Translations under genes and position numbers: made by a program
Part shown: piece by piece, positions 12,264 to 32,000 of the stretch
Layout of the letters: each line of letters starts with the position of its first letter
How positions within the stretch are numbered: the stretch's first letter is position 1
Notes under the pieces: model-generated
Database searches by the model: none
What the model saw: the letters and a program-made list of their open reading frames with translations, nothing else
What the model was told of the DNA's origin: nothing
DNA from: Promethearchaeum syntrophicum
GTDB taxonomy: Archaea; Asgardarchaeota; Lokiarchaeia; Sigyniarchaeales; Promethearchaeaceae
Reading direction: 5' to 3'
Assembly (NCBI RefSeq): GCF_008000775.2
Contig: NZ_CP042905.2
Location: forward strand, 630,001-662,000
Length of the DNA stretch: 32,000 nt

Positions 12264-12280
12264 AATGATTGCCTTCTTTT

Positions 12281-16517: not shown

Positions 16518-16553
16518 TTTGATTCACATAACAATTTTTAATATATAAAAAAT

Positions 16554-16892
16554 TTACAAAGGACGCCGTTCTGGTATTCCTTGAGTTTCTTTTCCACTAT
16601 CATAAAAATCTTGTGTTAAATATAAACCACAATAACAATGTCCATACTCTTCTTGATCGGGAATGCAATAATCACATGGACAAATAATATCTTTATCTTC
16701 TTCTTTAACCCCATCCCCATCTCGACAAGGACAGCTGTAATAACCATATCTATTGTAATTAGCATTTAAACCATCAATTATCGAATCCAAAAACTCAACA
16801 TCACGCGTTAATTTCCATGCGTTTTTTTTTGCAACCATTTCTACAAATTTTCGTGTATCTTCAATATTTTTTTCTTTTTTTGTTTTGGACAT
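16554..16892 (-). CDS. Ferredoxin:thioredoxin reductase catalytic subunit-like protein
   Basis: 112 aa. It has the CPC...CPC...CHC-type pattern: YYSCPCRDGDG...IICPCDYCIPDQEEYGHCYCGLYL. Confidence 0.85.
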   Translation of the reverse strand: MSKTKKEKNIEDTRKFVEMVAKKNAWKLTRDVEFLDSIIDGLNANYNRYGYYSCPCRDGDGVKEEDKDIICPCDYCIPDQEEYGHCYCGLYLTQDFYDSGKETQGIPERRPL

Positions 16893-16960
16893 ATTTAATT
16901 AAATCTCCTTTTAATTCATAAAAAAAAAGTAGTCACTTGTTGGGATATGAATTAAATTTA

Positions 16961-17260
16961 TCATAGACCACAAATTTCTTCCCAATCACTTTTTACAAAC
17001 CCAACTATTGCTTTTTCATCATTACAGACTAAAAATGGAAATGCGACTCTTCTATTAAATTTCTTTTTAAGACTTTCTTTTATTTTTGATTTCTTTTCAA
17101 TATCTATTTTATCAACATAAACATATCTAAATTTAACTTCATTTTCCCTAAGAAAATTCAATCCTCTACGACAAAATCCGCATGTGGATAAAGCAAATAC
17201 TGTTAATTCATTTGTAGCAATTTTTCCGTCTTCTTCGATAAAGTCAATATCTTCGTACAT
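16961..17260 (-). CDS. Glutaredoxin/thioredoxin-like small redox protein
   Basis: 99 aa. It has a CxxC active site in a Grx-like context: VFALSTCGFCRRGLNFLRENEVKFRYVYVD. Confidence 0.8.
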   Translation of the reverse strand: MYEDIDFIEEDGKIATNELTVFALSTCGFCRRGLNFLRENEVKFRYVYVDKIDIEKKSKIKESLKKKFNRRVAFPFLVCNDEKAIVGFVKSDWEEICGL

Positions 17261-17391
17261 AGTTAAATTCAGCCTCGAATAGATAAAAAAATAACGTTAT
17301 GAAATCTTATTCAAAATAGAAAAATTCATTATTAAAAATAAGTAATATTGTTTATCAAATCATATACATTAGAAAAGAGTGTTGATTAAAA

Positions 17392-18624: not shown

Positions 18625-19143
18625 TTACCCTTTATAGAGACCTAGTTTTCTCAAATAATTTAAAACACTAATGCATAATTCTTCCTCAAATTTCTGATAT
18701 ATTCCTAAATTGCCCTTTCCCAGTTCAATTGGTTCTTTGAAAACTTCATAGAATCTATTTAATAATATTTCTGCTTCTTCTTCCAAATGATTTTTCACCA
18801 TATTTGGTCTAAAAAAGAAAACTGTTATCAAAGATTTTTTGGAAACGATATTCATTTCAACATTTAATCCCTCTATATAAATTCGTTTGATTTGACCAAC
18901 ATTTTCCTTACCGAACATTGAGAGGGCTGCTATAAAATTAGATATTAAATCAATCTTCAGAGTAGAGTCGATTTGATAAGAAAAAAGGATATCACCACCA
19001 GTTCGGCAAATAAAAATTCCAAGCATATATTTCTTAAGTTTTCTTTGGACAAGTTTATATTGTTCTTCAGTGAGAACTTTAGGTTTATAACCATTAAAAG
19101 CGTAATTCTCTTTTTTTTCTTGGAGTGAATTCATTTTATTCAA
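18625..19143 (-). CDS. Roadblock/LC7- or longin-like fold protein (putative GTPase partner)
   Basis: 172 aa. The predicted alpha-beta-beta-alpha-beta-beta-alpha pattern is MLGIFICRTGGDILFSYQ / DLISNFIAALSMFG / IKRIYIEGLNVEMNIV / SLITVFFF / EEEAEILLNRFYEVF. It lies 11 nt downstream of the GTPase gene. The fold call rests on sequence pattern only. The start is either TTG at 19143 or ATG at 19134. Confidence 0.45.
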   Translation of the reverse strand: MNKMNSLQEKKENYAFNGYKPKVLTEEQYKLVQRKLKKYMLGIFICRTGGDILFSYQIDSTLKIDLISNFIAALSMFGKENVGQIKRIYIEGLNVEMNIVSKKSLITVFFFRPNMVKNHLEEEAEILLNRFYEVFKEPIELGKGNLGIYQKFEEELCISVLNYLRKLGLYKG

Positions 19144-19154
19144 TTTCGTTTTGT

Positions 19155-20108
19155 CTATTCTAAATTTTCTTCTTTTTTGAAGATTTCAATAGCTAATTTT
19201 TCAAACATCTCATCCACGTTTTCTCCTGTCTTTGCTGAGCATTCAATAAACAGAAATCCATGTTCGATTGCATAATTTAAACCCTCTTGTCTTGAAACCT
19301 TTCGTTCTAAGTCAGATTTATTTCCAACTAATAAAACTGGAACTTTGCCTAAATTTTCTTCTAAATCTGCAACCCACTTATCTAAGTGTTTAAACGATAA
19401 AGCATTGTTTATATCGTAACAGATTAAAGCTCCTTTGGCATCCTTAAAATATATACCTCGAATTTTGTCATATTGATCTTGACCTGCCGCGTCCCATACA
19501 TTCATTCGCGCTGTAAAGCGATATGTTCCTGAAAATAATAAATCTGTGCTCAAATAAGATGTTTTTATTTCTTTTGTGCCGAAATCCACACCCAAAGTTG
19601 TTTTAAGATCTTTCTTGAAATAATTATCTGTAAATCGAACTTTGATTGCTGTTTTTCCAACTGCTGTATCTCCGATCTCTATTATTTTGAAGGAGTAATT
19701 GCTTCTTAGAAGAGTTTTTGCTTCGTTTATTGCCCAACTTTCAATATTTTCCCCTGTTATTAGAGTCGGTGAAATATCACTCATTTCCGTAAGTTTTAAT
19801 ATAAAGCCATTGACATAAGTATCATATTCCATATTTTCTAAAGCTTTTTCATTAAAAGTTTCAATCTTACCAGAACAAGGTGCATTTAAAGTGGTTACTC
19901 CTTGTTCAGAAGCAATTGCTACAAACGGTAAGCCTACTTTAATTTCATTTTCAACTAGTAAACTTATTTCTGTAGGATTTTTTAAGAAAGCGTATCCTAT
20001 CTGGTCTAAGCCTATTATTTTCTTCTGTAAATTCATATAAACATGTTGATTTTTGCTATAATATAATTCATTCGGTAGATCATAACGACCATCAGCTATA
20101 GTTACCAT
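19155..20108 (-). CDS. Fusion protein: N-terminal GcvH-like (lipoyl-domain-fold) domain plus C-terminal Rab/Ras-like small GTPase
   Basis: All five G motifs are present: G1 GDTAVGKT, G2 TTLGVDF, G3 WDAAGQ, G4 GNKSD, G5 ECSAKTG. Residues 1-125 align by hand to E. coli GcvH (PNELYYSKNQHVYM vs PAELKYSKEHEWL; FVAIASEQGVTTLNAPCSGKIETFN vs [25 protein letters not shown]). Confidence 0.85.
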   Translation of the reverse strand: MVTIADGRYDLPNELYYSKNQHVYMNLQKKIIGLDQIGYAFLKNPTEISLLVENEIKVGLPFVAIASEQGVTTLNAPCSGKIETFNEKALENMEYDTYVNGFILKLTEMSDISPTLITGENIESWAINEAKTLLRSNYSFKIIEIGDTAVGKTAIKVRFTDNYFKKDLKTTLGVDFGTKEIKTSYLSTDLLFSGTYRFTARMNVWDAAGQDQYDKIRGIYFKDAKGALICYDINNALSFKHLDKWVADLEENLGKVPVLLVGNKSDLERKVSRQEGLNYAIEHGFLFIECSAKTGENVDEMFEKLAIEIFKKEENLE

Positions 20109-20155: not shown

Positions 20156-20596
20156 TCATTTCACTTGAATCCGATCCATGATTTTATCCCAGAATTCATT
20201 TTTAAATTCGGGATTAACTAATATAACTTTTTTCATCTTTACCTTTTCAATTTCAGGAATTTTATTGCCGGTTCTAAGAGGTAAATTGTTTCTATTTAGA
20301 ATATGTCCATCCAATTTCATGGAAATTGCATCAAATGGGCATAATGTCAGACATACACCACAAAAAACACATTTCAATGGATCTGGGAAAAATGGAACCC
20401 GTTCTTTTCTGGGCACTTTTTTTCCTTTAGGAATTTCTGGCTTGAATAATGCATTTTTTGGGCAAGCTTTTACGCATTGATAACATGAGGTGCATTTGTT
20501 AAGATCAAACATCAAGTCTGTTGTACGATTCATATATTCTATTTTTGTATTTCTAACCGAAAAATTTATAGATTCTTCCACAATTGGCCATTTCAT
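20156..20596 (-). CDS. 2x[4Fe-4S] ferredoxin-domain protein, the last gene of hdr/mvhD operon 1
   Basis: 146 aa. It has CTSCYQCVKACPKNA and CVFCGVCLTLCPFDA. Its start overlaps the mvhD stop by 1 nt. Confidence 0.8.
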   Translation of the reverse strand: MKWPIVEESINFSVRNTKIEYMNRTTDLMFDLNKCTSCYQCVKACPKNALFKPEIPKGKKVPRKERVPFFPDPLKCVFCGVCLTLCPFDAISMKLDGHILNRNNLPLRTGNKIPEIEKVKMKKVILVNPEFKNEFWDKIMDRIQVK

Positions 20597-21066
20597 TAAA
20601 TAACAACCTCCTCAAGTTTTTTAAATTCCTTTGCAGCTATTTTTTTACGGGAATTTGGTCCAATTTTCTTCAATTCAGATACAAATTCTCGAATATGTTC
20701 GGTAAATTCAGCTCCTTCACTAGCGCTAATATGCCAGAGCTTAAATCGTTTTGGATCAATCCCATATTGTTCCATAAACGTATTCATAATAGAAAATCTT
20801 CTTACTGCTTTTTCATTCCCTTCTATATAATGACAATCTCCTAAATGACACGCCCCAATTATGACTCCATCAGCTCCATTTTTCAAAGCTTCTATTGCAT
20901 AACTGGGTTCCATTCTTCCAGAGCACATCAAACGAATTATTCTAACATCTGCAGGTCGTTGCATACGGCTTACACCAGCTTGATCACTTCCAGTATAAGT
21001 GCACCAGTTACAAGCAAAACAAACAATATACGGCTCGAAATCACTTTTTTCAATCATTTTAATCAC
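20596..21066 (-). CDS. mvhD: MvhD-type (methyl-viologen-reducing hydrogenase delta subunit family) [2Fe-2S] protein
   Basis: 156 aa. The diagnostic sequence is IVCFACNWCTYTGSDQAG...RIIRLMCSGRMEPSYAIEALKNGADGVIIGACHLGDCHY. Confidence 0.9.
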   Translation of the reverse strand: MIKMIEKSDFEPYIVCFACNWCTYTGSDQAGVSRMQRPADVRIIRLMCSGRMEPSYAIEALKNGADGVIIGACHLGDCHYIEGNEKAVRRFSIMNTFMEQYGIDPKRFKLWHISASEGAEFTEHIREFVSELKKIGPNSRKKIAAKEFKKLEEVVI

Positions 21067-21073
21067 TTAAATT

Positions 21074-23056
21074 TTAAATTTCTTTGATATAATTCTCCCA
21101 AGGTCTTAATGCCCTTACTTCACTTAAAATTTGATTGCGAGTGAAATGATTCTGTATAATTGCATTTGATGGGCAAGAGCTTACACATACACCACATCCT
21201 TTGCATTTTATTGCATTTATATCTGCAGTTTTCGTAGTTTCATCAAAACTTATTGCATCATATGGGCAAAGTTGGATACATGATCTGCATCCTGAACATA
21301 TTTCTGGTTGAACCATTGAATAATAAGGCTCAATTTCTACTTCACCTGAATACATGAAATTATCCGCACTGCTAGCTGCTGCTTTCGCCTGAGCTACTGA
21401 GTCAGGTATATCACGTGGCGCTTGGCAAGTACCTGCAATAAAAATTCCAGTTGAGAGTGAATCTACTGGTTTAAGCTTTGGGTGTGCTTCCATGAACATT
21501 CCATCTTCTGAACATTGAATACCGAAAAATCGACCTACTTCATCAGCATCTTTTCGAGCTTCAATGGCTGTTGATAAAATGAGCATATCAACTTCAACTT
21601 CATACTTTTCAGCAAGTAAAGTATCGCTTCCCCTTAAAATTAAGGATCCATCATTTTTTTCAAAAACATCTCCAATTCTACCCCGGATAAAATTAATTCC
21701 ATATTCTCTTGAAGCAATTTCATAAAATTCTTCATAACCTTTTCCAAATGCCCTCAAATCAATGTAAAATATAAAAACTTCTGAATCTGGATATTTCTCT
21801 TTAAATTGCCTTGCTTGTTTTACCGCATACATACAACACACTCGTGAACAATATTTATGAGTGCCTTCATGAAAATCACGTGAACCTACACACTGTAAAA
21901 ATGCAATTCGTTTTGGTGTTTTATGGTCTGAAGGTTTTATTACTTTACCTAATGTTGGACCTGTACTGGAAAGTAAACGTTCCATCTCGATAGCAATTAG
22001 TACATTTTTATATTTTTGATATCCGTAGCGATAAAGTTGGGAAGGATCAAAAATATCATTTCCTGTTGCAATAATTATCGAACCGACTTTTAAATCAATA
22101 ATTTCATCTTTTAAGCTAAAATCTATGGCATTTACTTCACACGCATCAACACAAAGCATACATTCAATGCATGATTTTATATCGATTGTATATTGTTCAG
22201 GAATTGCTTGAGGAAATGGAACATAGGCCGCACGTCTATAACCCATATTATAATCAAATTCGTTTGGAACAGTAACAGGACAAATTTCACCACAAGCTCC
22301 ACAGCCTGTGCATATGGAATGATTTATTCTTCGATTTTTTTTTCTTACCTTAACCTCAAAATTTCCTACATTTAGATCTACACTTTCTATTTCAGAATAC
22401 GTAAGTAGATCTATATTCGGGTTTCGTCCAACTTCTACCATCTTAGGAGTAGTAATACATGCAGAGCAGTCCATTGTTGGAAAAGTTTTATCAAGTTGCG
22501 CCATATGACCTCCTATTGAAGGAGTTCGCTCTACTAAATGAACTTTATATTTATTTGCGAGATCAAGGGCAGCAAACATTCCTGTAATTCCTGCTCCGAC
22601 AATTAAAGCTTCTTTAGTTACCTCTATTTTTTGTCTAATTAATGGTCTATCATTCGATACTTTTGCAACCGCCATTTTAATATGATCTTTTGCAATTTCC
22701 ATAGCGCCTTTATGATCCCTCATACTTACCCATGATGCATGTTCACGTATGTTTGCTTGTTCAAAAAAGAACTCATTAAAACTGTTTTCACGCATGACTC
22801 TTCGATATGTTTCCTCATGCATGAGTGGACTACAAGCAGCTACTACAACACGATCAACTTTACCTGATTTTAAATCCTCTGCTATCAAATCCTGACCTGC
22901 ATTGCTACACATGAATTTGAAGTTTTTTACTGAAACAACATTAGGTATATGTTTTGAATATTCCGTTATTTCATCCATGTCAATAACATCTGCAATATTT
23001 TTACCACAATGGCAAATATATACTGCAACTTTTGGTTTAGGTCTTTCTAAACTCAT
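21074..23056 (-). CDS. hdrA: Heterodisulfide reductase subunit A (full-length, bifurcating type with ferredoxin-like inserts)
   Basis: 660 aa. The N-terminus has VAVYICHCGKNIA, the FAD motif is ALIVGAGITGMFAALDLA, and the protein has several CxxCxxCxxxCP motifs. There is a 4-nt ATGA overlap with hdrB. Confidence 0.92.
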   Translation of the reverse strand: MSLERPKPKVAVYICHCGKNIADVIDMDEITEYSKHIPNVVSVKNFKFMCSNAGQDLIAEDLKSGKVDRVVVAACSPLMHEETYRRVMRENSFNEFFFEQANIREHASWVSMRDHKGAMEIAKDHIKMAVAKVSNDRPLIRQKIEVTKEALIVGAGITGMFAALDLANKYKVHLVERTPSIGGHMAQLDKTFPTMDCSACITTPKMVEVGRNPNIDLLTYSEIESVDLNVGNFEVKVRKKNRRINHSICTGCGACGEICPVTVPNEFDYNMGYRRAAYVPFPQAIPEQYTIDIKSCIECMLCVDACEVNAIDFSLKDEIIDLKVGSIIIATGNDIFDPSQLYRYGYQKYKNVLIAIEMERLLSSTGPTLGKVIKPSDHKTPKRIAFLQCVGSRDFHEGTHKYCSRVCCMYAVKQARQFKEKYPDSEVFIFYIDLRAFGKGYEEFYEIASREYGINFIRGRIGDVFEKNDGSLILRGSDTLLAEKYEVEVDMLILSTAIEARKDADEVGRFFGIQCSEDGMFMEAHPKLKPVDSLSTGIFIAGTCQAPRDIPDSVAQAKAAASSADNFMYSGEVEIEPYYSMVQPEICSGCRSCIQLCPYDAISFDETTKTADINAIKCKGCGVCVSSCPSNAIIQNHFTRNQILSEVRALRPWENYIKEI

Positions 23057-24078
23057 ATGTTTTTACCTCCTGCAAAATCATCTAATGGAATATTTTCAAT
23101 TTTCTTCAGTAATTTATCGAACGGAACAAATGGTGATATTCCTTTCAATTCTTCAGGTTTTATCATCCCGAGGTCTTCAGGTTCAAATCCCATTGCTAAT
23201 CCTAAAAGTTGGGTAATATATATAACTGGAATTCTGAACTCTTCTTCTCCCTCATCTAATAATTTGGAAACTTCAATTTGTCCTAAATCAAACTGCAAAT
23301 GGCAAAATGGACAACACACTACAATGCAATCTACTCCAACTTTACGAATTTGTCGCAATTTCTCTAAAGTATATTGAAGACTATTATCTTTAAAACCAGT
23401 TCTTAACGATCCTCCTGCTCCACAGCACATTAATTTTTCTTGATAATCAATTGATTGACATCCGATTTTCTCAACAACCTCATCAAAAAATGTAGGATTA
23501 TCAGGATCTTGTCCAAAAAGCTGCGTGGTTGCTGGCTTAAGAATGTGACAACCATAATGAATAGCTGTTCGTAAATTAAGTGTTCTTTTAACTAATTTTT
23601 TTATTTTCTCCAATCCTATATCAAAATAAAGTACATCCATTACTTGACGCACATTAACCTTACCATCAAAATGAATATTTTTTTCTGCAAGAATATCATT
23701 GATTCTTTTATTAATTTCTGGATTTGATTTCATTTCATGTTCTACTTCGTGTAATGTGCCAAAACATCCATTGCACAGTGTCAATAATTCGGTTGTATTA
23801 TTATTTTGGGCGATTGTTAGATTTCGTGTCCCTAATGTAAGCCAAAGTGCTTTATCGACGGATCTAAACACTCCTGGTGCAGGACAGCATGTAGCACCAT
23901 TCATATCTATAAGCTCTATTCCCAGTTTGTTAAAAACAAAGCGAGATGCGCGTTCGATCATAGGATAACGATTTGGAATAACACACCCTAAATATAACGA
24001 ATATTTTAAATCTGATAGGGGTTTTTCAGTTAGTTCTTCCTTTGATTGCTCCCTATTTTGTTCTTTAATTTCTGTCAT
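23053..24078 (-). CDS. hdrB: Heterodisulfide reductase subunit B (two CCG domains)
   Basis: 341 aa. Motifs include YSLYLGCVIPNRYP, GATCCPAPG, LCNGCFG, LMCCGAGGS and CPFCHLQFD. Confidence 0.9.
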   Translation of the reverse strand: MTEIKEQNREQSKEELTEKPLSDLKYSLYLGCVIPNRYPMIERASRFVFNKLGIELIDMNGATCCPAPGVFRSVDKALWLTLGTRNLTIAQNNNTTELLTLCNGCFGTLHEVEHEMKSNPEINKRINDILAEKNIHFDGKVNVRQVMDVLYFDIGLEKIKKLVKRTLNLRTAIHYGCHILKPATTQLFGQDPDNPTFFDEVVEKIGCQSIDYQEKLMCCGAGGSLRTGFKDNSLQYTLEKLRQIRKVGVDCIVVCCPFCHLQFDLGQIEVSKLLDEGEEEFRIPVIYITQLLGLAMGFEPEDLGMIKPEELKGISPFVPFDKLLKKIENIPLDDFAGGKNI

Positions 24079-24119
24079 TAATTCTCATCTTCTCTTCATT
24101 TCAAAGGTTTTCAATTTTA

Positions 24120-24662
24120 TTAGCGATATGGGATACGTGCATTAAATTTAATTTTATCAAGTAAGGTAAAAAGCTCATCCAATGCTTCAGGAAACTTGTG
24201 AACAGTTGGAGGTATTTTATCTAATTTATGTAATTCTCGTAATTTTGCCCATTTTGAATCTGCTCCTCCCAGAGGAACTGCATGGCCCGTATTTGCTAAA
24301 TTCTTAATGACATTTTTCAAAGCATCTGGTAAATAGCCCTCCCTAACTGCCATATTCCTCAATTTTAAAATTACATTAGTAACTGGAATTGTTCTTGGGC
24401 AACGTTCATAACAATTAAAGCAAGTTGAACAATACCAGATATCTGGTTCTGAAAGAACTGAATGAACCCCTGCCAAGGCTTTTCTCATTATTTTTCTTGT
24501 TACTAAGGCTGTAAAACTACCACTGGGGCAAACTGATGTACACATTCCGCACTGAATACAACTACGAATCTTTTTCAAATCTTCATCAACAGAAAGTTCA
24601 TCTGAGTATTCAGAGCTATATTTTATTAATTTTGATTTATTTATCAATTCATTTTTCACCAA
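24120..24662 (-). CDS. hdrC: Heterodisulfide reductase subunit C
   Basis: 180 aa. Motifs are CIQCGMCTSVCPSG and CSTCFNCYERCPR. The start is TTG at 24662 or GTG at 24659. Confidence 0.9.
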   Translation of the reverse strand: MVKNELINKSKLIKYSSEYSDELSVDEDLKKIRSCIQCGMCTSVCPSGSFTALVTRKIMRKALAGVHSVLSEPDIWYCSTCFNCYERCPRTIPVTNVILKLRNMAVREGYLPDALKNVIKNLANTGHAVPLGGADSKWAKLRELHKLDKIPPTVHKFPEALDELFTLLDKIKFNARIPYR

Positions 24663-25187
24663 ATTATTGTCTATGATCGATTACGATCAAATTATTGAAT
24701 CTATCAAAATCAGTCACTTTATTCACTTAATTTAATAAATTTGTTTTTGTTTGATTTAAATCTTCACTTTTTTTAGATAAGCTGATATCAGAGGACATCT
24801 TAAATATATTATCATTTATGGGTACGGTTCTCTTTGAAATAGTAAAAAAGAACCATTTGCTTATTCACCGAAACATTAGTACTTGGAAATTAATTTAGAT
24901 TCAAATGAAATTGATCCTTTTTTATGATCATAATTTGTTGAGGAAGTGATAAATATTCGGAAAATGATCATATTTTCATTCCAAATTATGTTTTTCATCA
25001 ATTTCACCTTTCAAGTAAAAATTATATCGATAAATTTTTTAAATACATAATTACTTTAAAATGTTATATTGGTATTACAAATGTTTCGATTTTTCTATTT
25101 ATTATTATCATTCGTTTTTTATTTAATGAATAAATGATAAAATTGAATAAATTGAAATTTTGAGTTTAAAAAATAATCAATATAAAG
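24663..25187. promoter_or_regulatory. Divergent intergenic control region between hdrC (operon 1) and tusA
   Basis: 525 bp with no convincing ORF, lying between two divergently transcribed clusters. It is AT-rich and contains a tandem AAATTGAA direct repeat 30-45 nt upstream of the tusA ATG. I did not define any specific promoter element. Confidence 0.4.
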
Positions 25188-25421
25188 ATGAAAACAATGG
25201 TAGATTTCGAATTAGATGCTAAGGGATTAAAATGTCCAATGCCAATCTTAAAAGCCAAAAAAGTTATTAAGAAAATGGAATCTGGACAAACATTTGAATT
25301 GGTTTCAGATGATGGCGGTTCAAAAGCAGATGTCCCACCTCTGCTAAATAAAACTGGTTGCACACTGGTTGAAATGAAAGAAGATGGTGGCGTTTTTACC
25401 TTTTTAATTAAAAAGGATTAA
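25188..25421 (+). CDS. tusA: TusA-family sulfurtransferase
   Basis: 77 aa. It has the diagnostic LDAKGLKCPMPILKAKKVI (CPxP active-site Cys). Confidence 0.88.
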   Translation: MKTMVDFELDAKGLKCPMPILKAKKVIKKMESGQTFELVSDDGGSKADVPPLLNKTGCTLVEMKEDGGVFTFLIKKD

Positions 25422-25427
25422 AATTGG

Positions 25428-25793
25428 TTGATGATCATGAAAATTGGATTTGCAGTAATGACTGAATTTTTAAAATATCAGCAAATATACTCACTTCTTA
25501 AATTAATTGAAGCTGCTAAAGCAAAAAATCATCAAATAACAGGAATTTTCTTTTTTGGGACAGGGGTTTTAAATATTAAGAAAGGTGCCCATTTAGGAAA
25601 GAGCACAAAAAATATCCCACTTGAGTTAGAGAACTTACATGATATTCCAAAATATGCATGCCAAACATGGGCTGATAATTATGCTATATTCCCAGAAGAT
25701 ACAATCCAAGGATTGGAAATTACAGGTTTAGGTGAACTTTCTAATATCACGAAAGAATCTGATAAAATGATTTTCTTCGGAGCACATGCATAA
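25428..25793 (+). CDS. dsrE: DsrE/TusD-family sulfur-relay protein
   Basis: It is about 118-121 aa; the likely start is the ATG at 25437 (MKIGFAV). It has ITGIFFFGTGV and a Cys in the YACQTWADNY context, corresponding to the ICVAAALRRG active-site Cys of TusD. It is followed by dsrF/dsrH-like genes. Confidence 0.8.
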   Translation: MMIMKIGFAVMTEFLKYQQIYSLLKLIEAAKAKNHQITGIFFFGTGVLNIKKGAHLGKSTKNIPLELENLHDIPKYACQTWADNYAIFPEDTIQGLEITGLGELSNITKESDKMIFFGAHA

Positions 25794-25808
25794 AATAAAA
25801 AGGAGATT

Positions 25809-26189
25809 ATGAGAAAAATGGAATCAGTTTTAGTAATGTGTAATTCCGGTCCTTTTGGAACAAATTCAACATATGAATCAATCCGATTAGGTTCTGGATT
25901 TATGGGTTTAGGTGAGGATATAAATTGTAAAATTCTGTTTTATGGTGATGCAGTTCTCTCTGTAAAAAAGAATTTGAATTCCGGTAAGATTGGAATGGAT
26001 TCATTTGAAGAAGGATTAGAAATGGCTGATTTAAGTGAATTACCGATAATTGTAATTGAAGAGGATTTAATTACAAGGGGTATGACAACAAGGGATTTGT
26101 TTGAATTCGAAGATTGTCCTATTCAAGTAATTAAAGAAAATCAATTAGGGGAAATAATGACCCAATTTGATGCAGTATTTCAAATGTAG
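25809..26189 (+). CDS. dsrF: DsrF/TusC-family sulfur-relay protein
   Basis: 126 aa. It has the pattern VLVMCNSGPFGT...ESIRL...ILFYGDAVL...EEDLITRG and sits between the dsrE-like and dsrH-like genes. A GGAG precedes the ATG. Confidence 0.75.
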   Translation: MRKMESVLVMCNSGPFGTNSTYESIRLGSGFMGLGEDINCKILFYGDAVLSVKKNLNSGKIGMDSFEEGLEMADLSELPIIVIEEDLITRGMTTRDLFEFEDCPIQVIKENQLGEIMTQFDAVFQM

Positions 26190-26200
26190 GTGGAAAAAAA

Positions 26201-26527
26201 ATGGCAAAAAATTTGATATTATTCGGACATAGTGGTTTCGATTTAAATAATTACAAGAGTTTGACAAAAATCCTAAATAATACAACTGAATGTCTTGTTG
26301 TTTTGATGGAAGATGGTGTGAATGGTGTAATAAAAACAGATGCAACAAGTGATTTTGAACCTTACAATGATATTCTTGAAAAAAATATTCCACTATACTG
26401 TGTTGTTGAAGATTTGGAAGCACGAGGTTTTGAATCATCACAATTAAAATCGTCTATTAATCATTTAACTTATCTAGAATTAATAAATTTGATTGAAACA
26501 TCGAATCGAGTTATTTCGTTATTATAA
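26201..26527 (+). CDS. dsrH: DsrH/TusB-family sulfur-relay protein
   Basis: 108 aa. VVLMEDGV and LYCVVEDLEARGF parallel LLLLQDGV and VYALNEDLIARGL of TusB. Confidence 0.75.
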   Translation: MAKNLILFGHSGFDLNNYKSLTKILNNTTECLVVLMEDGVNGVIKTDATSDFEPYNDILEKNIPLYCVVEDLEARGFESSQLKSSINHLTYLELINLIETSNRVISLL

Positions 26528-26597
26528 TTTTTTTTTTGAAATTAGATGTAGTGAGAACTGAAAAAAAACAAAAATAAAAACAAAAAGTGAAAAAAAT

Positions 26598-27017
26598 ATG
26601 CCAAAACAAATGAATTTTATTGTCTCGGAAAATAGTTTTGAAAAATTCGGGATGATGGTGATATTGGGCACTACTGGTGCTGCGATGGAGACACAAATGA
26701 ACTTCTTCTTTACATTTTGGGGACTTTTCCTCCTAAAGAGAAGTTATAATCCCGGAGTCGCTAAAATGCCCTTCCCATTCAAGAAGATGGGCGGAACGAT
26801 GTTTAAAAAGATGTTGAAAGGATTTGGATATGATGACATGTGGGAAATGATAAAAGATGGTGTTGAAGAAGGCAAAATTAAATTATACCCATGCTCAATG
26901 ACTATGGACTTACTAAGAATCAAACGCAAATCAATGCACAAATTCGTTGAAGAACCTGTTGGTGCCGCTGCATTCTTAGAGATGTGCGATAATGCAGATT
27001 CAGTAATTTCATTATAA
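26598..27017 (+). CDS. DsrE/DsrF-like family protein (COG2210-type, also annotated as a peroxiredoxin-family protein)
   Basis: 139 aa. Features are FIVSENSFEKFGMMVILGTTGAAM, FFFTFWG, a conserved Cys in LYPCSMTMDL, and the C-terminal GAAAFLE. Confidence 0.7.
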   Translation: MPKQMNFIVSENSFEKFGMMVILGTTGAAMETQMNFFFTFWGLFLLKRSYNPGVAKMPFPFKKMGGTMFKKMLKGFGYDDMWEMIKDGVEEGKIKLYPCSMTMDLLRIKRKSMHKFVEEPVGAAAFLEMCDNADSVISL

Positions 27018-27115
27018 TATTGAAAATTTTCTGTATTTTTTTTTAAATATATACAAAAATATTTGACTAAAATAATAATATATCAAAAAATTAAAACTAA
27101 AAAGGATGTCTTATT

Positions 27116-27619
27116 GTGGGAAAAAAAGAAGTTATGAATAATATATCGAATGGGACAAATCATAAAGCGTTCCTTGATGAAATTGATAAGAAAATCCTTA
27201 CGCTCATTCAAGAGGATGGAAAAGCCTCACTACGAACAATTTCTAAAACTATAGGATCCAGTATTTCCACTGTTAAAAATCATCTAGATAGATTAAATGA
27301 AATTGAAGTCATAAAACGAACTATTGCGGTTGTTGATTGTTGCAAAATTGGATATACAGAAATGATTTTAATATCTATTCGAGTAAATTCTTCTGTCGGA
27401 ATTCAAGAAATTCTAGATCATCTTGAAGAAATTGAACAAATTAATGCAATTTATCAAGTATCAGGTAATTATCCAATCTTTTGTTTCGCTAAATGCGTTG
27501 AAAAGGAAGATCAAATAAATTTACTTGAAGATATAAAAAAAACCAAAGGAATTGATGAGGCAGTAACCCAAATTGTTCTCAAAAGAGTAAAGGAAGATAT
27601 GCGAGTTAAAATACCATAA
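27116..27619 (+). CDS. Lrp/AsnC-family transcriptional regulator
   Basis: The HTH reads LDEIDKKILTLIQEDGKASLRTISKTIGSSISTVKNHLDRLNEIEVI and is followed by a RAM-like domain. The start is GTG at 27116 or ATG at 27134. The gene ends 16 nt before hdrC of operon 2. Confidence 0.85.
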   Translation: MGKKEVMNNISNGTNHKAFLDEIDKKILTLIQEDGKASLRTISKTIGSSISTVKNHLDRLNEIEVIKRTIAVVDCCKIGYTEMILISIRVNSSVGIQEILDHLEEIEQINAIYQVSGNYPIFCFAKCVEKEDQINLLEDIKKTKGIDEAVTQIVLKRVKEDMRVKIP

Positions 27620-27635
27620 ATTAGAAGGAAAAAAA

Positions 27636-28247
27636 ATGACAAGTAATACTAAAAGCGAAATTGAAAACGATTTTCTAGAAGAAAAGAAAAAATATGTTGA
27701 GTTAAGTGATTTTGATTCTCATTTTTTTGATGACATCGAAAATCGGAGCAAAATCTTATCATGTATTCAATGTGGAACATGTTCCGCGAGTTGTGAATCA
27801 GGTAGATGGACAGCGTTAAAAACCAGAATGATTATTCGAAAAGTAATATTAGGTGATCTCTCAGTATTAGAGGATCCTGACATCTGGCTTTGTACGACAT
27901 GTTATAATTGTTATGAGCGTTGTCCCCGTAATTTGAAACCTACAGAAGTAATTATCGAATTAAGGAATTATGCATCGAAATTAGGAAATATTCATCCAGT
28001 TCATAGGAAAGTGGTAGATTTTCTAAAAGCAACAGGTCATGCTGTTCCAATCAATGATGAAACGATCCAGAAACGAAAAGAATTGGGTATTGATGAAATT
28101 CCACCAACCTTATACAAATTTAAAGATGAAGAAAATAGTGATTTGACAAAATATGCAAAGGAATTATTCAATCTAGTTCCTCCTAAAGAAAAAAAGGACG
28201 CAGGAATGAATAAAAACAAAGTTATAGATAAAGAAAAGAAGGCTTAA
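27636..28247 (+). CDS. hdrC: Heterodisulfide reductase subunit C (second copy)
   Basis: 203 aa. Motifs are CIQCGTCSASCESG (CE instead of CP) and CTTCYNCYERCPR. It has a Lys-rich C-terminal tail. Confidence 0.9.
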   Translation: MTSNTKSEIENDFLEEKKKYVELSDFDSHFFDDIENRSKILSCIQCGTCSASCESGRWTALKTRMIIRKVILGDLSVLEDPDIWLCTTCYNCYERCPRNLKPTEVIIELRNYASKLGNIHPVHRKVVDFLKATGHAVPINDETIQKRKELGIDEIPPTLYKFKDEENSDLTKYAKELFNLVPPKEKKDAGMNKNKVIDKEKKA

Positions 28248-28250
28248 AAA

Positions 28251-29159
28251 ATGGTCCAAGAAAAGAAATATGCGTTTTATTTAGGTTGTATAATGCCTAA
28301 TAGATACCCTGCCATAGAAAAATCAACTCGGTTTGCAATGGAAAAACTCGGTTATGAATTATTAGATATGGAACGAGCAGCATGTTGTCCTGCTCCCGGA
28401 GTTTTACGTTCCTTTGATAAGGAAGATTGGATGGTAGCTGCCGCACGAAATATATGCATAGCAGAAAAGATGGATGTTGATTTACTAACCGTTTGTAACG
28501 GGTGCTTTGGCACATTGCAAGAAGTTAACACACAATTACATGAAAATGAAGAATTGCGTGAGAGAGTAAATAAAAAATTAAAATTACTTGGAGATTATGA
28601 ATTTAAAGCTACAATACAAGTCAAACATGTAGCAGCGATATTAGCAATAGATATTGGACCTTCTGAAATTAAAAAACACTTAGTTAGGAAGATAAAGGCA
28701 ACCACAGCAATTCATTATGGGTGTCACTTTTTAAAACCTAGTCATGTTAGACAAATCGATAGTTCAGAGGATCCAATTATTTTAGAAGATTTTGTGGAAG
28801 CTTTGGGTATCAAATCATTGCAATTTAAACAAAAATATACCTGTTGTGGTGCGGGAGGTGGAATAAAGGCTGCCTATGCTGATACAAGCATGAACATTCT
28901 ATCCGAGAAGATGAAACATATCTCAGATGTTAACCCAGATTTTATTTTAGATGTGTGTCCTTTCTGCCATTTACAATTTGAAACGGGTCAAGATTGGCTT
29001 AAAAAGAATCATAGTATTAATTACGATATTCCAGTATTTCATCTCTCTCAAATCGTAGCATATTGTTTGGGAATGGAAGAGAAATATATGGGATTAAAAT
29101 ATCAAAACCATGGTAAAAAATATCAATTAACTCCAATTGAGGTGCAAACAAGTGACTAA
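28251..29159 (+). CDS. hdrB: Heterodisulfide reductase subunit B (second copy)
   Basis: 302 aa. Motifs include YAFYLGCIMPNRYP, AACCPAPG, VCNGCFG, YTCCGAGGG and CPFCHLQFE. Confidence 0.9.
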   Translation: MVQEKKYAFYLGCIMPNRYPAIEKSTRFAMEKLGYELLDMERAACCPAPGVLRSFDKEDWMVAAARNICIAEKMDVDLLTVCNGCFGTLQEVNTQLHENEELRERVNKKLKLLGDYEFKATIQVKHVAAILAIDIGPSEIKKHLVRKIKATTAIHYGCHFLKPSHVRQIDSSEDPIILEDFVEALGIKSLQFKQKYTCCGAGGGIKAAYADTSMNILSEKMKHISDVNPDFILDVCPFCHLQFETGQDWLKKNHSINYDIPVFHLSQIVAYCLGMEEKYMGLKYQNHGKKYQLTPIEVQTSD

Positions 29160-31176
29160 TTCAACAAACGCAGATGATATTGCTGTTAGTGATCAAAAAA
29201 CTCTTCATAATGAAAAAGATGAACCCCGAATCGGGGTTTTTGTTTGTCATTGTGGCCATAATATTGCAGATACAGTTGATGTTGAGAAAACTATTGAAGC
29301 AGTTAAAGGATTAGACAATGTTGTTGAAGCTCAGCATTATATGTTCATGTGCTCGAAACAAGGAATTGAAATGGTAAAGGAAAGTATCAAAGAAAAGGGT
29401 GTCAATAGGACGGTAGTCGCTTCATGTTCAAAAACCCAACATGGTCCCACATTTGCAAGAGCAATTGAAGAGGAAGGTCTTAACAAACATTTGCATTTCC
29501 AAGCCAACATACGTGAAGGTTGTTCATGGGTAACTCCTAAAAGTAAAAAACCAGAAGCTACCAAAAAAGCGATCAAATTAGTTTCTGGAGCAATCAATCG
29601 AGCACGCAAATTGGAAGAAGTAGAAACCAAACAAATTAAAACTACAAAAGCGGCTTTAGTTATTGGAGCAGGGATTGCTGGGTTAAGAGCAACTATGGAT
29701 TTGGCCAATCTTGGTATTCCAGTATATTTAGTGGAGCGTGAATCGAGTATAGGGGGGCATATGACTCAGTTATATAAAACATTCCCAACTAATGAATGTC
29801 CACAATGTTCAATTTCGCCTTTAACAAACGGTGTCGCAAGCCATCCAAATGTTACGTTAATGACTTATAGTACAGTGAAGAGTGTTGAAGGTTCTTTAGG
29901 AAATTTTGAAGTTAAAATTCAAACCAAACCTCGATATGTTCATGACAACTGTACCTCTTGTGGAGAATGTGCTGAAAAATGTCCTGTTGAAGTTCCTAGT
30001 GAATGGGATAGTGGTATGAGTATGAGAAAGGCAATTTACAAACTCTACCCTCAAGCTATCCCCTCAACTTATGTACGTGATAAGAAAGTATGTATTACTT
30101 GTCAAACGTGTGTTAATTTATGTCCTGTAGGAGCTGTAGATTTCTCAATGAAGAAAACTATAACTACTGTCAAAGTTGGCTCAATAATAGTAGCAACGGG
30201 ATATGATGAATACGATCCTTCTGAAATTGAACCATATCATTATGGACAACCGGGTTATGAAGATATAATTACACAATTACAGTTTGAGAGGATGTTAAAT
30301 CCTGTTTCGTTAACGGGGTCAAATATTTTACGACCATCTGACGGTAGCGTTCCAAAACGAGTTGTTATGATACAATGTGTGGGGTCGAGAAATGAACAAG
30401 TAGGAAACGAATATTGCACTGGTGTTTGTTGCATGTTTGGAAATAAGAACGCGCAAATGATTAAAGAAATCAATCCTGAAACGGATGTAATTATGTGTTA
30501 TATCGATATGAGAACTCCTGGAATATATTATGAAGAATTTTATAAAAAATCTCAAGAGATGGGAATAAAATTCATTCGGGGTAGACCTTCAGAAATTGAA
30601 AGAAATCCTCTTACTGGTGAATTAACTGTGATCGTTGAAGATACATTATCATTATCACCAATGGAAATACAAGCAGATATGATCGTTCTATCTGCAGCTA
30701 TGGTTCCTCCAAGAGGAATTGGTCCACTTGGGTCAAAACTTCAAATTCTACGAATGAAGGAAGGATTTTTCAAAGAATTCCATATTAAAATGAACCCAAC
30801 TAAATCTTCAAAAGATGGAATTTTTTTGGCAGGAGCTATTCAGGGTCCAAAGGATATAACACAGTCTGTCGCACAAGCGGGTAGTGCTGCAGCTCTTGCA
30901 GCTGCCCCTTTAGTAAGAGGGTATATAGAGAAAGAGATGATAATTCCTTTAATTGATCATGTAAGTTGTACTTTATGTGGAGCATGTAAAACTGTATGCC
31001 CATTCGGAGCCTTAGATATCAAGAATGAAAAATTGGAATTAAATGAAGTTGCTTGCAAAGGATGTGGCTTGTGTCAACCGATTTGCCCAACTGCTGCAAT
31101 CCAATTGATAAATACACGCGAAGATGAACTTTATGATGAAATTGTAGGAATTACAGGAGGAATTACAAATGCTTAG
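29137..31176 (+). CDS. hdrA: Heterodisulfide reductase subunit A (second copy, full-length type)
   Basis: 679 aa. It has IGVFVCHCGHNIA, ALVIGAGIAGLRATMDLA and multiple CxxCxxCxxxCP motifs. The start is TTG at 29137 or GTG at 29152, and both overlap the end of hdrB. Confidence 0.92.
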   Translation: MRCKQVTNSTNADDIAVSDQKTLHNEKDEPRIGVFVCHCGHNIADTVDVEKTIEAVKGLDNVVEAQHYMFMCSKQGIEMVKESIKEKGVNRTVVASCSKTQHGPTFARAIEEEGLNKHLHFQANIREGCSWVTPKSKKPEATKKAIKLVSGAINRARKLEEVETKQIKTTKAALVIGAGIAGLRATMDLANLGIPVYLVERESSIGGHMTQLYKTFPTNECPQCSISPLTNGVASHPNVTLMTYSTVKSVEGSLGNFEVKIQTKPRYVHDNCTSCGECAEKCPVEVPSEWDSGMSMRKAIYKLYPQAIPSTYVRDKKVCITCQTCVNLCPVGAVDFSMKKTITTVKVGSIIVATGYDEYDPSEIEPYHYGQPGYEDIITQLQFERMLNPVSLTGSNILRPSDGSVPKRVVMIQCVGSRNEQVGNEYCTGVCCMFGNKNAQMIKEINPETDVIMCYIDMRTPGIYYEEFYKKSQEMGIKFIRGRPSEIERNPLTGELTVIVEDTLSLSPMEIQADMIVLSAAMVPPRGIGPLGSKLQILRMKEGFFKEFHIKMNPTKSSKDGIFLAGAIQGPKDITQSVAQAGSAAALAAAPLVRGYIEKEMIIPLIDHVSCTLCGACKTVCPFGALDIKNEKLELNEVACKGCGLCQPICPTAAIQLINTREDELYDEIVGITGGITNA

Positions 31177-31582
31177 TGAACAAAAAGATGTTCTTGCCTT
31201 TATGTGTGCTGAATGTGGTCAAGGTGCTGCAGTCACTGCAGGTGTTGCTAGATTAAAATATGATACTTCTGTCAAAATCATTCGAGTAAAGTGCAGTGGC
31301 TTAGTAGGACCTATCCAAATAATGGATGCATTAAAAAATGGAGCAGATGCAGTTGCCGTAATTGGTTGCTGCTTTCAGGCTTGTCATTTTTTCAATGGGA
31401 ATTTTCTTTCTATGCATCGAATAAAACTTATGAAAAAGCTCTTTAAGGAAATGGGATACAGCGATCAAATGATTAATCATTATACTGCTCGAGCTGCGGA
31501 AGGTGAAACTGCTACTGGGGATTTTGAAGATGCTATTGAACGTTTGATGAAAGCAGAAGAAGAAGGAGGAACTTTTGCATGA
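31169..31582 (+). CDS. mvhD: MvhD-family protein (second, more divergent copy)
   Basis: 137 aa. It reads LAFMCAECGQGAAVTAG...IIRVKCSGLVGPIQIMDALKNGADAVAVIGCCFQACHF. It overlaps hdrA by 8 nt. Confidence 0.85.
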   Translation: MLSEQKDVLAFMCAECGQGAAVTAGVARLKYDTSVKIIRVKCSGLVGPIQIMDALKNGADAVAVIGCCFQACHFFNGNFLSMHRIKLMKKLFKEMGYSDQMINHYTARAAEGETATGDFEDAIERLMKAEEEGGTFA

Positions 31583-32000
31583 AAATTGGGATTTTTCAAT
31601 TAAATGGTTGCAATAAATGTTTCAATGAAACAATTTTATTAGATAAACACATAAAATCTAAAAATGAAATTTATAGAATAAAAAATTCTGAAATTGAATC
31701 ATGGTCTGAGAAAGAGCTTGATTATGCAGTTGTAACGGGGTATATAAAACCAGAAAACCATGAATTTCTTCAAAATTTATCTAAAAATTCAAAAAATATA
31801 GTGGGATATGGAAGTTGTGCAACAACAGGAGGAATTTTCGGGTTAGCTTACCAAAATGGATATAAAATCTCACCAATCGGAAAAATAATCTCAGATGCAG
31901 CAATTGTTGATGGGTGTTTGGGTGAAATTGAAGAATTATCTGAAATTTTACAAGGTAATCCTTTATCAAATGATAGCAATCTATGTAAATCTTGCGCACG
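31579..32000 (+). CDS. [NiFe]-hydrogenase small-subunit-like protein (MvhG/HydD/FrhG family), 3'-truncated by the window edge
   Basis: This gene is not in the ORF track because it has no stop inside the window. My translation is MKIGIFQLNGCNKCFNETILL...DYAVVTGYI...IVGYGSCATTGGIFG. That matches the proximal-cluster pattern L.GC..C ... V.G ... G.CA..GG. It has an ATGA overlap with the mvhD stop. Confidence 0.7.
   Translation, partial: MKIGIFQLNGCNKCFNETILLDKHIKSKNEIYRIKNSEIESWSEKELDYAVVTGYIKPENHEFLQNLSKNSKNIVGYGSCATTGGIFGLAYQNGYKISPIGKIISDAAIVDGCLGEIEELSEILQGNPLSNDSNLCKSCA

Follow-up and report, generated by a model that had tools for sequence, protein, structure and literature searches.

A sulfur-carrier cassette conserved beside one heterodisulfide reductase operon in Promethearchaeum syntrophicum and other Asgard archaea

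Which disulfide is handled by the heterodisulfide reductase (Hdr) complexes of an archaeon that is not a methanogen? As the original prediction for this locus noted, the substrate of Hdr in non-methanogenic archaea is unsettled, and the Asgard acceptor is still given in the literature as an 'unidentified heterodisulfide' (PMC11291895). The question matters because, of the energy genes in Asgard archaea, those for HdrABC-type complexes are some of the most highly transcribed, and every metabolic model of these archaea gives them a central place, including the hydrogen/sulfur syntrophy scenarios of eukaryogenesis. It is raised here by a stretch of 32,000 nucleotides of Promethearchaeum syntrophicum MK-D1 (contig NZ_CP042905.2, positions 630,001 to 662,000), called the window below and numbered from its first letter, which has a G+C content of ~31%. 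Between positions 20156 and 32000, two operons with the order hdrC-hdrB-hdrA-mvhD flank a sulfur-relay cassette, tusA-dsrE-dsrF-dsrH-dsrE2B-like-lrp. These genes correspond approximately to DSAG12_01134 to 01149, and the published MK-D1 gene table lists identical genes in identical order from DSAG12_01128 to 01151 (Imachi 2020). From this arrangement, it had been suggested that a protein persulfide or polysulfide on TusA/DsrEFH is the substrate or product of Hdr. Open reading frame (ORF) calls, Pfam and NCBIfam recovered every gene assigned at that time to operon 1 (minus strand), the cassette and operon 2 (both plus strand), with the same coordinates and strands.

We observed that the cassette and operon 2 belong to a single conserved gene cluster. 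A forward synteny scan based on an alignment of the DsrE2-like protein, with one genome per species, yielded 74 loci, 68 of them from Asgard archaea; ORFs were called within 10 kb on either side of each DsrE2-like gene and then clustered into families. Exactly 12 families recurred in these flanks, namely Lrp, TusA, DsrE, DsrF, DsrH, DsrE2-like, HdrC, HdrB, HdrA, MvhD, MvhG-like and FrhB-like, and the next commonest family was present at only 15 loci. In 51 of the 58 Asgard loci that extended far enough downstream, hdrC was the next gene behind the DsrE2-like gene, on the same strand and separated from it by a median of 57 bp, and frhB was followed by a second tusA gene at 30 of 35 loci. All the Hdr genes that follow the cassette are orthologues of operon 2. 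The reverse test gave a matching result: using metagenome contigs from an independent collection anchored on the MvhG-like protein (72 loci), the DsrE2-like gene and the cassette were found upstream in 20 of the 21 loci with at least 5.2 kb of upstream sequence, and two rearranged metagenome variants carried the cassette downstream of the second tusA gene, tusA2.

The conserved unit is therefore (lrp) tusA1-dsrE-dsrF-dsrH-dsrE2B-like, hdrC2-hdrB2-hdrA2-mvhD2 and mvhG-like-frhB/gltD-like-tusA2, comprising 12 to 13 co-directional genes. It is found in two culturable organisms, MK-D1 and Lokiarchaeum ossiferum. Since the adjacency of cassette and Hdr recurs in dozens of species-level genomes, it goes far beyond chance, and the concern that the linkage might be peculiar to this genome does not hold. 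Outside the Asgard archaea, proteins related to the DsrE2-like one at 28-32% identity (Rhodobacterales and the like) come with a tusA partner and no Hdr. Judging from this gene order and from the conserved residues described below, we consider it highly probable that the sulfur-carrier cassette and Hdr operon 2 are functionally coupled.

The original prediction had also drawn attention to the mirror image formed by the two operons around the cassette. This arrangement is real, but as a conserved signal it fails, because operon 1 adjoins the cassette only in the genus Promethearchaeum, where the same arrangement is seen in Promethearchaeum sp. CSMAG_2396 (~90% protein identity), and the conserved partner is operon 2; the mirror image is thus a lineage-specific accident of arrangement. 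In L. ossiferum, the operon-1 orthologue (HdrA 75% identical; hdrCBA-mvhD-ferredoxin) shares its strand with operon 2 and is separated from the cassette by ~10 kb. A recent inverted duplication of the Hdr operon was considered and rejected, since HdrA, HdrB and HdrC are 41-42% identical between the operons (HdrA1 and HdrA2, 41%) and MvhD 31%, and the inverted DNA matches are short and imperfect (71-83%), all of them within conserved coding motifs. In lineages that carry the labels Loki-, Hod-, Hermod- and Odinarchaeota, the orthologues share 66-74% identity with HdrA2, compared with 41-42% between the operons, which indicates that the split between the operons predates those lineages. On these protein identities, operon 1 (hdrC1B1A1-mvhD1-ferredoxin) is a putative ancient paralogous Hdr.

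Two further observations concern these paralogues. A third HdrA-MvhD group, 57-60% identical to HdrA1, was seen in L. ossiferum and in MK-D1 (DSAG12_02801-02808), in a cluster with genes for an aldehyde:ferredoxin oxidoreductase, for a polyferredoxin and for a TPR-CCG fusion protein; these partners suggest that Asgard HdrA-MvhD modules are combined with differing partner enzymes. In L. ossiferum, sulfate-activation genes, encoding a PAPS_reduct-family (CysD-like) protein and a GTP_EFTU/APS_kinase fusion (CysNC-like), lie ~5 kb from the operon-1 orthologue.

The proteins of the cassette retain the cysteines expected of sulfur carriers in most of its members. TusA1 (25188 to 25421; Pfam TusA, E 2.5e-25) harbors Cys16 within a CPMP version of the CPxP motif (KCPMP); this cysteine of the sulfur-binding type is kept in 100% of 87 homologues, and sulfur binding by the TusA CPxP cysteine has been demonstrated (PMC11094781). 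The three following genes encode a DsrE/TusD-like subunit (25428 to 25793; Pfam DsrE, E 1.2e-12), a DsrF/TusC-like subunit (25809 to 26189; Pfam DsrE, E 1.8e-8) and a DsrH/TusB-like subunit (26201 to 26527; Pfam DsrH, E 1.6e-8). All three passed the Pfam gathering scores (DsrE, DsrE and DsrH) and missed the NCBIfam equivalog cut-offs for TusD (TIGR03012, 38.7 bits against 89.25), TusC (TIGR03010, 27.8 against 94.15) and TusB (TIGR03011, 44.1 against 49.2), so that they form a divergent DsrEFH-like set with scores far below those of TusD, TusC and TusB equivalogs. The true start of the DsrE-like gene is likely the ATG at 25437, giving a protein of 118 amino acids (aa). Its sole cysteine, at ORF position 78 (Cys78), is present in 100% of 58 orthologues and aligns with the active-site cysteine of Allochromatium vinosum DsrE (PDB 2HY5_A) and with a cysteine of 1JX7; the active-site cysteine of DsrE/TusD is likewise numbered Cys78 in A. 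vinosum and Escherichia coli. Cys40 of the DsrF-like subunit is kept in 96% of orthologues, and the orthologue alignment of the DsrH-like subunit contains no conserved cysteine.

The fifth carrier gene encodes a DsrE2B-like protein of 139 aa (26598 to 27017; PF13686, Pfam DrsE_2, E 3.9e-18, 66.3 bits with a cut-off of 25). A profile of 20 orthologues matched PDB 2QS7, the Sulfolobus solfataricus DsrE2B, with an E of 2.4e-22 and with Cys99 aligned, and this cysteine is kept in 98%. The protein did not reach the NCBIfam DsrE2 equivalog (49.7 against 210), which sets it apart from the membrane DsrE2 found in A. vinosum. The cassette ends with an Lrp/AsnC-family regulator (27116 to 27619; Pfam HTH_24/HTH_AsnC and AsnC_trans_reg), which was found in 54 of the 68 Asgard loci, mostly divergent and upstream of tusA1; Promethearchaeum, Lokiarchaeum and Harpocratesius have it between the cassette and hdrC. 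The stretch 24500-27800, which takes in the cassette and the start of hdrC2, showed no terminator-like sites in a bacterial-type promoter/terminator scan whose counts were at chance level and which is uninformative for an archaeon.

The Hdr and MvhD subunits of operon 2 match those of the methanogen type. HdrC2 (27636 to 28247; TIGR03290, 170.3 bits, cut-off 160) has eight cluster cysteines that are 100% conserved. HdrB2 (28251 to 29159; TIGR03288, 366.4 bits, cut-off 345.15) bears two CCG motifs for noncubane [4Fe-4S] clusters and aligns from end to end with HdrB of Methanothermococcus thermolithotrophicus (PDB 5ODC_B; E 8.6e-92), keeping every CCG cysteine; its ten CCG cysteines are found in 100% of 58 orthologues. 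HdrA2 (29137 to 31176; supported by PDB, Pfam and NCBIfam matches) is 679 aa long from a TTG start, or 674 aa from the alternative start at 29152 chosen by an automatic gene call, and its residues 28-672 (645 residues) align with residues 2-649 of 5ODC_A, E 7e-194. MvhD2 (31169 to 31582; Pfam FlpD, E 5e-31) has six cysteines conserved at 98-100%. The claim that the HdrA proteins are of the long, MvhD-associated, bifurcating type and not of the short sHdr type was borne out by the full-length match to 5ODC_A, whereas the HdrA of sHdr, the sulfur-oxidising Hdr-like system (PDB 6TJR), matches only residues 343-594 of HdrA2. Both HdrA1 and HdrA2 are full-length, four-domain proteins with inserted and C-terminal ferredoxin domains (Pfam Fer4 pairs).

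The window ends within the next gene, and the picture of an operon 2 that stops at mvhD had to be revised. A Logan contig of run DRR199588 is identical to window positions 22018 to 32000 (100% over 9,983 nucleotides) and extends 10 kb beyond; it places an MvhG-like gene, a FrhB/GltD-like fusion gene and a second tusA gene next in line. The 5' part of the MvhG-like gene (DSAG12_01149; Pfam Oxidored_q6) spans 31579 to 32000 on the plus strand, cut by the window end. The complete protein of 418 aa is 100% identical to the NCBI entry DSAG12_01149, and its best solved relative is MvhG (PDB 5ODC_E; E 1.7e-16, Foldseek E 5e-7). It has thirteen cysteines that are 100% conserved and an extra C-terminal domain of ~160 aa that had no match. 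The family has 354 members in a large protein collection, and among 120 listed members all those with a named source are from Asgard archaea. The following protein, an 819-aa fusion, contains a GltD/NfnB-type NAD(P)H flavoprotein core (~200-615; PDB matches of E 1e-85 to 1e-53) inserted between the N- and C-terminal domains of FrhB. The large subunit of [NiFe] hydrogenase, MvhA, is absent from the operon 2 cluster, where the MvhG-like and FrhB/GltD-like genes are present instead, and the only MvhA of MK-D1, DSAG12_03951, is encoded elsewhere in the genome (Imachi 2020). The interpretation of operon 2 as an Mvh hydrogenase-Hdr complex was rejected on these grounds. From its domains, the input module looks NAD(P)H- or F420H2-dependent (F420H2, reduced coenzyme F420).

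The cluster closes with tusA2 (contig L082, 13302-13538; Pfam E 1.6e-21), in which the CPxP motif appears as VCPVP. All 13 genes from tusA1 to tusA2 are co-directional; several of them overlap, and no gap exceeds 98 bp. The cluster genes are all transcribed in the MK-D1 culture at 191-348 reads per kilobase per million, compared with 346 for MvhA (Imachi 2020 S-Tables 3 and 4). TusA2 is more conserved than TusA1. Of its 71 orthologues, 67 have a second cysteine 4-5 residues ahead of the CPxP cysteine, 64 of them in a C-G-x-V-C-P-x-P motif (position -4) and 3 more at position -5; TusA1 never has a cysteine there. The site holds Gln in MK-D1 and its nearest relative, and Thr in two others. A role of TusA2 as a DsrC-like two-cysteine substrate was not upheld, because the second cysteine is absent in MK-D1 and its closest relative, and the motif is given as an observation only.

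Some lineages vary the end of the cluster. Harpocratesius repetitus has a small ferredoxin in place of the FrhB/GltD fusion and a further DsrE after tusA2. At Hod/Hermod-type loci (L030/L006, L046, L095, L138 and L146), an extra hdrC'-hdrB' pair, 28-37% identical to HdrC1/HdrB1, follows tusA2, which recalls the two HdrBC pairs of sHdr, and their FrhB, of 380 aa, has no GltD insert. In addition, a contig of 2,965 bp labelled Patescibacteria carries a tusA and DsrE2-like pair 48-55% identical to the Asgard proteins; it is most likely a mis-binned Asgard contig.

Next, the cluster was compared with known Hdr and sulfur-transfer systems. It shares HdrA, HdrB, HdrC, MvhD and an MvhG-type three-cluster subunit with the methanogen MvhADG-HdrABC complex (PDB 5ODC), homologous over the full length and with the cluster cysteines conserved, and both operons have the Hdr-subunit features of the methanogen type: a full-length HdrA, an HdrB with two CCG domains (10 Cys), an HdrC with 2x[4Fe-4S] and an MvhD directly after each hdrA. 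The Asgard cluster differs in that it has no MvhA and a FrhB/GltD-like flavoprotein instead, in the additional ~160-aa domain of its MvhG-like protein, and in being joined, in a non-methanogen, to a sulfur-relay cassette with TusA at its end. The observation that the window lacks genes related to coenzyme M (CoM) or coenzyme B (CoB) held up, in that Pfam and NCBIfam recognised none in the scanned ORFs of the window. In NCBIfam, both HdrA proteins match best the model of Methanosarcina acetivorans HdrA2B2C2 (NF040770; 857.7 and 738.6 bits), and the MvhD proteins match its C-terminal part; the scores remain under the cut-off of 1100 bits because MvhD is a separate gene in the Asgard cluster. The FrhB-type domain suggests a possible F420H2 input, as in M. 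acetivorans, but in the Asgard cluster this input would pass through separate MvhG-like and FrhB/GltD proteins, and the substrate is not known to be CoM-S-S-CoB.

The sHdr systems of Hyphomicrobium, Aquifex and Sulfolobales resemble the Asgard cluster in the synteny of hdr with tusA and DsrE-family genes, in the conserved sulfur-binding cysteines and in the DsrE2B type. That TusA/DsrE genes are established neighbours of sHdr agrees with the description of sHdr loci as 'always accompanied' by sulfur-delivering TusA/DsrE transferases (PMC11094781), and a dsrE3A-dsrE2B-tusA cluster adjoins hdr-like genes in Sulfolobales (PMC4175335). However, the Asgard HdrA is a long four-domain protein with MvhD, whereas the HdrA of sHdr has ~350 aa, no ferredoxin domains and no MvhD; each operon of the window has one HdrBC pair, compared with two in sHdr (hdrC1B1A-hyp-hdrC2B2); and a DsrEFH-like trimer set takes the place of DsrE3. 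LbpA is absent, with no such family conserved in 140 related loci, and there is no lipoate ligase among the 12 conserved families, although no search aimed at lipoate ligases was made. Unlike sHdr, operon 2 would probably work in the reductive direction.

The logic of the cluster is shared with FlxABCD-HdrABC, the NADH dehydrogenase/heterodisulfide reductase of sulfate reducers and syntrophs, in which a pyridine-nucleotide flavoprotein module is joined to an MvhD-type adaptor and HdrABC. The differences are in the inputs, which are FlxA, FlxB and FlxC compared with the Asgard MvhG-like and FrhB/GltD proteins, and in the protein partner, DsrC compared with the TusA/DsrE family. DsrK has DsrC as a protein substrate. 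For FlxABCD-HdrABC, a protein-bound sulfur or disulfide on DsrC was reportedly proposed as the acceptor by Ramos and colleagues in 2015. The Flox/Flx-Hdr sets of MK-D1 are listed separately from the present cluster by Imachi et al. The cassette resembles DsrEFH/TusBCD with TusA in its invariant equivalent of the DsrE cysteine, Cys78, and behind tusA it has three genes in a row that appear to be paralogues of the DsrE, DsrF and DsrH families, in that order; it differs in having no DsrC/TusE partner in the cluster and in an extra conserved cysteine in the DsrF-like subunit (96%).

Taken as a whole, the gene content would be consistent with a cytoplasmic flavin-based electron-bifurcating (or confurcating) Hdr complex with a non-hydrogenase input. 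In this proposal, the FrhB/GltD-like flavoprotein would oxidise NAD(P)H or F420H2, and the electrons might flow through three [4Fe-4S] clusters of the MvhG-like protein and the [2Fe-2S] cluster of MvhD2 to the flavin adenine dinucleotide of HdrA2. One branch could exchange electrons with ferredoxin by way of the HdrA ferredoxin domains, and the other would lead via HdrC2 to HdrB2 with its two noncubane clusters, where a sulfane-sulfur S-S bond might be cleaved to thiol and sulfide, or formed in reverse. The sulfur presented to HdrB2 could be a persulfide, trisulfide, polysulfide or thiosulfonate, relayed from TusA1 through the DsrEFH-like set to the DsrE2B-like protein and TusA2, and the operon 1 Hdr may share the same thiol/sulfur pool. 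We regard the chances that sulfane sulfur borne by the relay is the HdrB2 substrate as about even. The more specific proposal is put forward tentatively, as possible rather than probable: that the 'unidentified heterodisulfide' of Asgard Hdr may be the sulfane sulfur carried by TusA/DsrE, and that the module may act as a hydrogenase-independent, NAD(P)H/F420H2-driven and ferredoxin-coupled protein-persulfide/trisulfide reductase, in which the MvhG-like subunit would have lost its [NiFe] partner and would dock the flavoprotein.

Several observations weigh against a relay-fed Hdr. The cluster contains no DsrC/TusE-type acceptor, and no such family is among the 12 conserved ones. At 7 of 58 loci, the cassette occurs without adjacent Hdr. 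The second cysteine of TusA2 is missing in MK-D1 itself. HdrB2 is near the methanogen HdrB over its whole length, which makes a small-molecule heterodisulfide equally compatible. In Harpocratesius repetitus, the stretch between dsrH and the DsrE2-like gene holds three inserted genes, for a cysteine desulfurase (Aminotran_5), for an extra TusA and for a ThiF-type E1, with NifU_N upstream; these insertions fit a biosynthetic relay. The sulfate-activation genes near the operon-1 orthologue of L. ossiferum are a hint of assimilation. The energetics have to be considered as well: the S0/H2S and polysulfide couples lie at ~-270 mV, and CoM-S-S-CoB, at ~-140 mV, is far more oxidising. Given these potentials, it is doubtful that persulfide reduction could drive ferredoxin reduction from NAD(P)H.

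Four other explanations of the locus were weighed. Hdr2 might reduce a low-molecular-weight (hetero)disulfide, while the cassette builds or repairs a thiol cofactor or supplies sulfur for Fe-S clusters. HdrB2 passes the CoB-CoM HdrB equivalog (366 against 345 bits) and aligns with 5ODC_B along its full length, HdrC2 passes its equivalog too, and a heterodisulfide compound is how the Asgard acceptor is treated in the literature. We nevertheless judge a small-molecule substrate rather unlikely: none of the 12 conserved families is one of cofactor biosynthesis, Asgard archaea are reported to be without methyl-coenzyme M reductase, and five carrier genes plus a terminal TusA in near-obligatory adjacency exceed the usual need of maturation. 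An alternative closer to the current annotation is that the cassette is a biosynthetic relay, delivering TusABCD-type sulfur for tRNA thiolation, molybdopterin, thiamine or Fe-S clusters, with Hdr2 either unrelated or serving only as a reductant, for example in the reductive release of sulfide or thiocarboxylate from persulfides. The KEGG and Prokka names of the cassette genes are those of tRNA-thiouridine synthesis, the best NCBIfam models are TusD, TusC and TusB, the Harpocratesius insertions and nearby NifU are of a biosynthetic kind, and MK-D1 has a separate cluster of tusA, dsrE, cysteine desulfurase and scaffold genes (DSAG12_01092 to 01095). This explanation is set back by Tus scores far below the equivalog cut-offs (38.7 against 89; 27.8 against 94), by the lack of a conserved TusE, MnmA or NcsA family in the cluster, and by the neighbours that are conserved in both test directions, which are seven Hdr-complex genes; we hold it to be unlikely.

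It is improbable, in our view, that the cluster works oxidatively in the manner of sHdr, with carrier sulfane sulfur oxidised (to sulfite or disulfide) and its electrons, confurcated with those of reduced ferredoxin, reaching NAD(P)+ or F420. Such a direction would agree with sHdr being the established case of hdr/tusA-dsrE synteny, with the extra hdrC'-hdrB' after tusA2 in Hod-/Hermodarchaeota and with the interpretation of MK-D1 Hdr complexes as confurcating in the literature, but HdrA is long, MvhD is present here and absent from sHdr, LbpA is missing, and the cluster has no conserved sulfite-handling gene. A role in selenium trafficking, in which TusA/DsrE-type carriers would handle perselenide and Hdr would give reducing equivalents, appears highly improbable. 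TusA1 matches the YedF selenium-metabolism model at 49 bits, Lokiarchaeia encode selenocysteine (Sec)-containing HdrA and MvhD according to the literature, and TusA and TusD transcripts of Methanococcus maripaludis are reported to rise on selenium depletion. Nevertheless, the matches to selenium models fall short of their cut-offs and reflect folds held in common; in the window, the two HdrA and the two MvhD proteins are Cys forms in uninterrupted ORFs; and the cluster has no conserved gene for SelD or the Sec machinery.

Regarding prior knowledge, Imachi et al. file the cluster under 'heterodisulfide reductase complexes', and in their table, as in KEGG and Prokka, the cassette genes keep the automatic names of tRNA 2-thiouridine synthesizing proteins A, D, C and B. 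In the literature searched, which did not cover subscription journals, the only earlier link between Asgard archaea, TusA/DsrE and Hdr is a 2025 preprint on Nerearchaeum marumarumayae (bioRxiv 10.1101/2025.07.22.663070), whose scheme gives Hdr reducing 'TusA- and DsrE-bound persulfides' as a hypothesis. Its donor is a [NiFe] hydrogenase of group 3c, and conserved synteny, the module of MvhG-like and FrhB-GltD proteins and TusA2 are not brought up in the preprint passages that present the scheme. A paper on 'DsrEFH type II' (ISME J 2026) places archaeal dsrEFH beside 'dsrMK or qmoAB', and no Asgard taxon is named in its text. The quantified two-way conservation of the 12-13 gene unit, the tie of a specific Hdr paralogue to the cassette, and an MvhG-like/FrhB-GltD input module that has no hydrogenase and comes with a TusA2 at the end appear to be new. 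The linkage of one Hdr paralogue to a full set of sulfur carriers makes the substrate question testable in cultured MK-D1 and L. ossiferum. Two annotations should be corrected, since the MvhD/MvhG genes of the cluster are not part of a hydrogenase and the tRNA-thiolation label of the cassette is unsupported by its context. Should the proposed protein-persulfide/trisulfide reductase prove true, cytoplasmic sulfur redox chemistry would become part of core energy metabolism in many of the examined Asgard lineages.

On the minus strand, operon 1 begins with HdrC1 (24120 to 24662; TIGR03290, 163.7 bits, cut-off 160), followed by HdrB1 with two CCG domains (23053 to 24078; TIGR03288, 372.7 bits, cut-off 345.15; Pfam CCG twice). 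HdrA1 (21074 to 23056) is a full-length bifurcating-type protein of 660 aa that matches the NCBIfam HdrA2 model over residues 9-652 and has Pfam Fer4 domains at ~249-311 and 583-633. It is followed by MvhD1, the [2Fe-2S] adaptor subunit (20596 to 21066; Pfam FlpD, E 3e-47; NCBIfam VhuD, E 3.5e-34). The order hdrC-hdrB-hdrA-mvhD had been read correctly, and a fifth gene had gone unnamed: the operon ends with a 2x[4Fe-4S] ferredoxin of 146 aa (20156 to 20596; Pfam Fer4 in two stretches, E 6e-16), which has the locus tag DSAG12_01134 (Imachi 2020 S-Table 3). A ferredoxin after mvhD1 is also kept in Promethearchaeum sp. CSMAG_2396 and L. ossiferum. By Pfam, operon 1 has only this ferredoxin where an electron-donor module would be expected, with no [NiFe] hydrogenase or formate dehydrogenase recognised there. 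Between hdrC1 and tusA1, which are divergent, lies an AT-rich intergenic region of 525 bp (24663 to 25187) without an ORF of at least 60 aa.

Adjacent to operon 1, a 317-aa Rab-like small GTPase (19155-20108, minus strand; Pfam Ras, E 1.4e-46) carries at its N-terminus the only GcvH-like domain near the cluster (Pfam, E 3.9e-4; NCBIfam GcvH, E 9e-6). It was considered as an LbpA-like lipoate carrier and rejected, since Gln stands at the position of the lipoyl lysine. A 91%-identical copy is present in Promethearchaeum sp. CSMAG_2396, and a Ras-family gene of 317 aa, for which Pfam shows GTPase domains only, lies beside the L. ossiferum operon-1 orthologue. Directly after the GTPase is a 172-aa ORF (DSAG12_01132; 18625-19143, minus strand) without a Pfam or NCBIfam match, which has two copies in Promethearchaeum sp. 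CSMAG_2396 (76% and 65% identity) and a 166-aa gene at the corresponding L. ossiferum position.

A thiol/oxygen redox island lies just beyond this region, at 15291-18582. It comprises a flavodiiron FprA (15291-16517), the catalytic subunit of a ferredoxin:thioredoxin reductase (16554-16892), a glutaredoxin-like protein (16961-17260) and a Pyr_redox_2/Rubredoxin_C flavoprotein (17392-18582). Prokka names the last 'CoA disulfide reductase', and the CoADR-type active-site cysteine was not seen in its N-terminus. Further along, an HdrD-like gene (Fer4_8 and two CCG; 8650-10029, minus strand) overlaps a GlcD-type FAD_binding_4 dehydrogenase (10008-11471), forming a lactate/glycolate dehydrogenase-HdrD pair and the third CCG-type enzyme within 32 kb. 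The HdrD-like gene is adjoined by an acyl-CoA dehydrogenase with a C-terminal rubredoxin-like domain (7073-8428, minus strand), and three consecutive ORFs of 261, 499 and 214 aa without Pfam match are downstream of the GlcD-like gene (11478-14425, minus strand). The remaining genes include a UPF0175/PIN-like pair that is probably a toxin-antitoxin system (6175-7018, minus strand), a 706-aa DUF255 thioredoxin-domain protein (3348-5468) and a 620-aa leucine-rich-repeat protein (284-2146).

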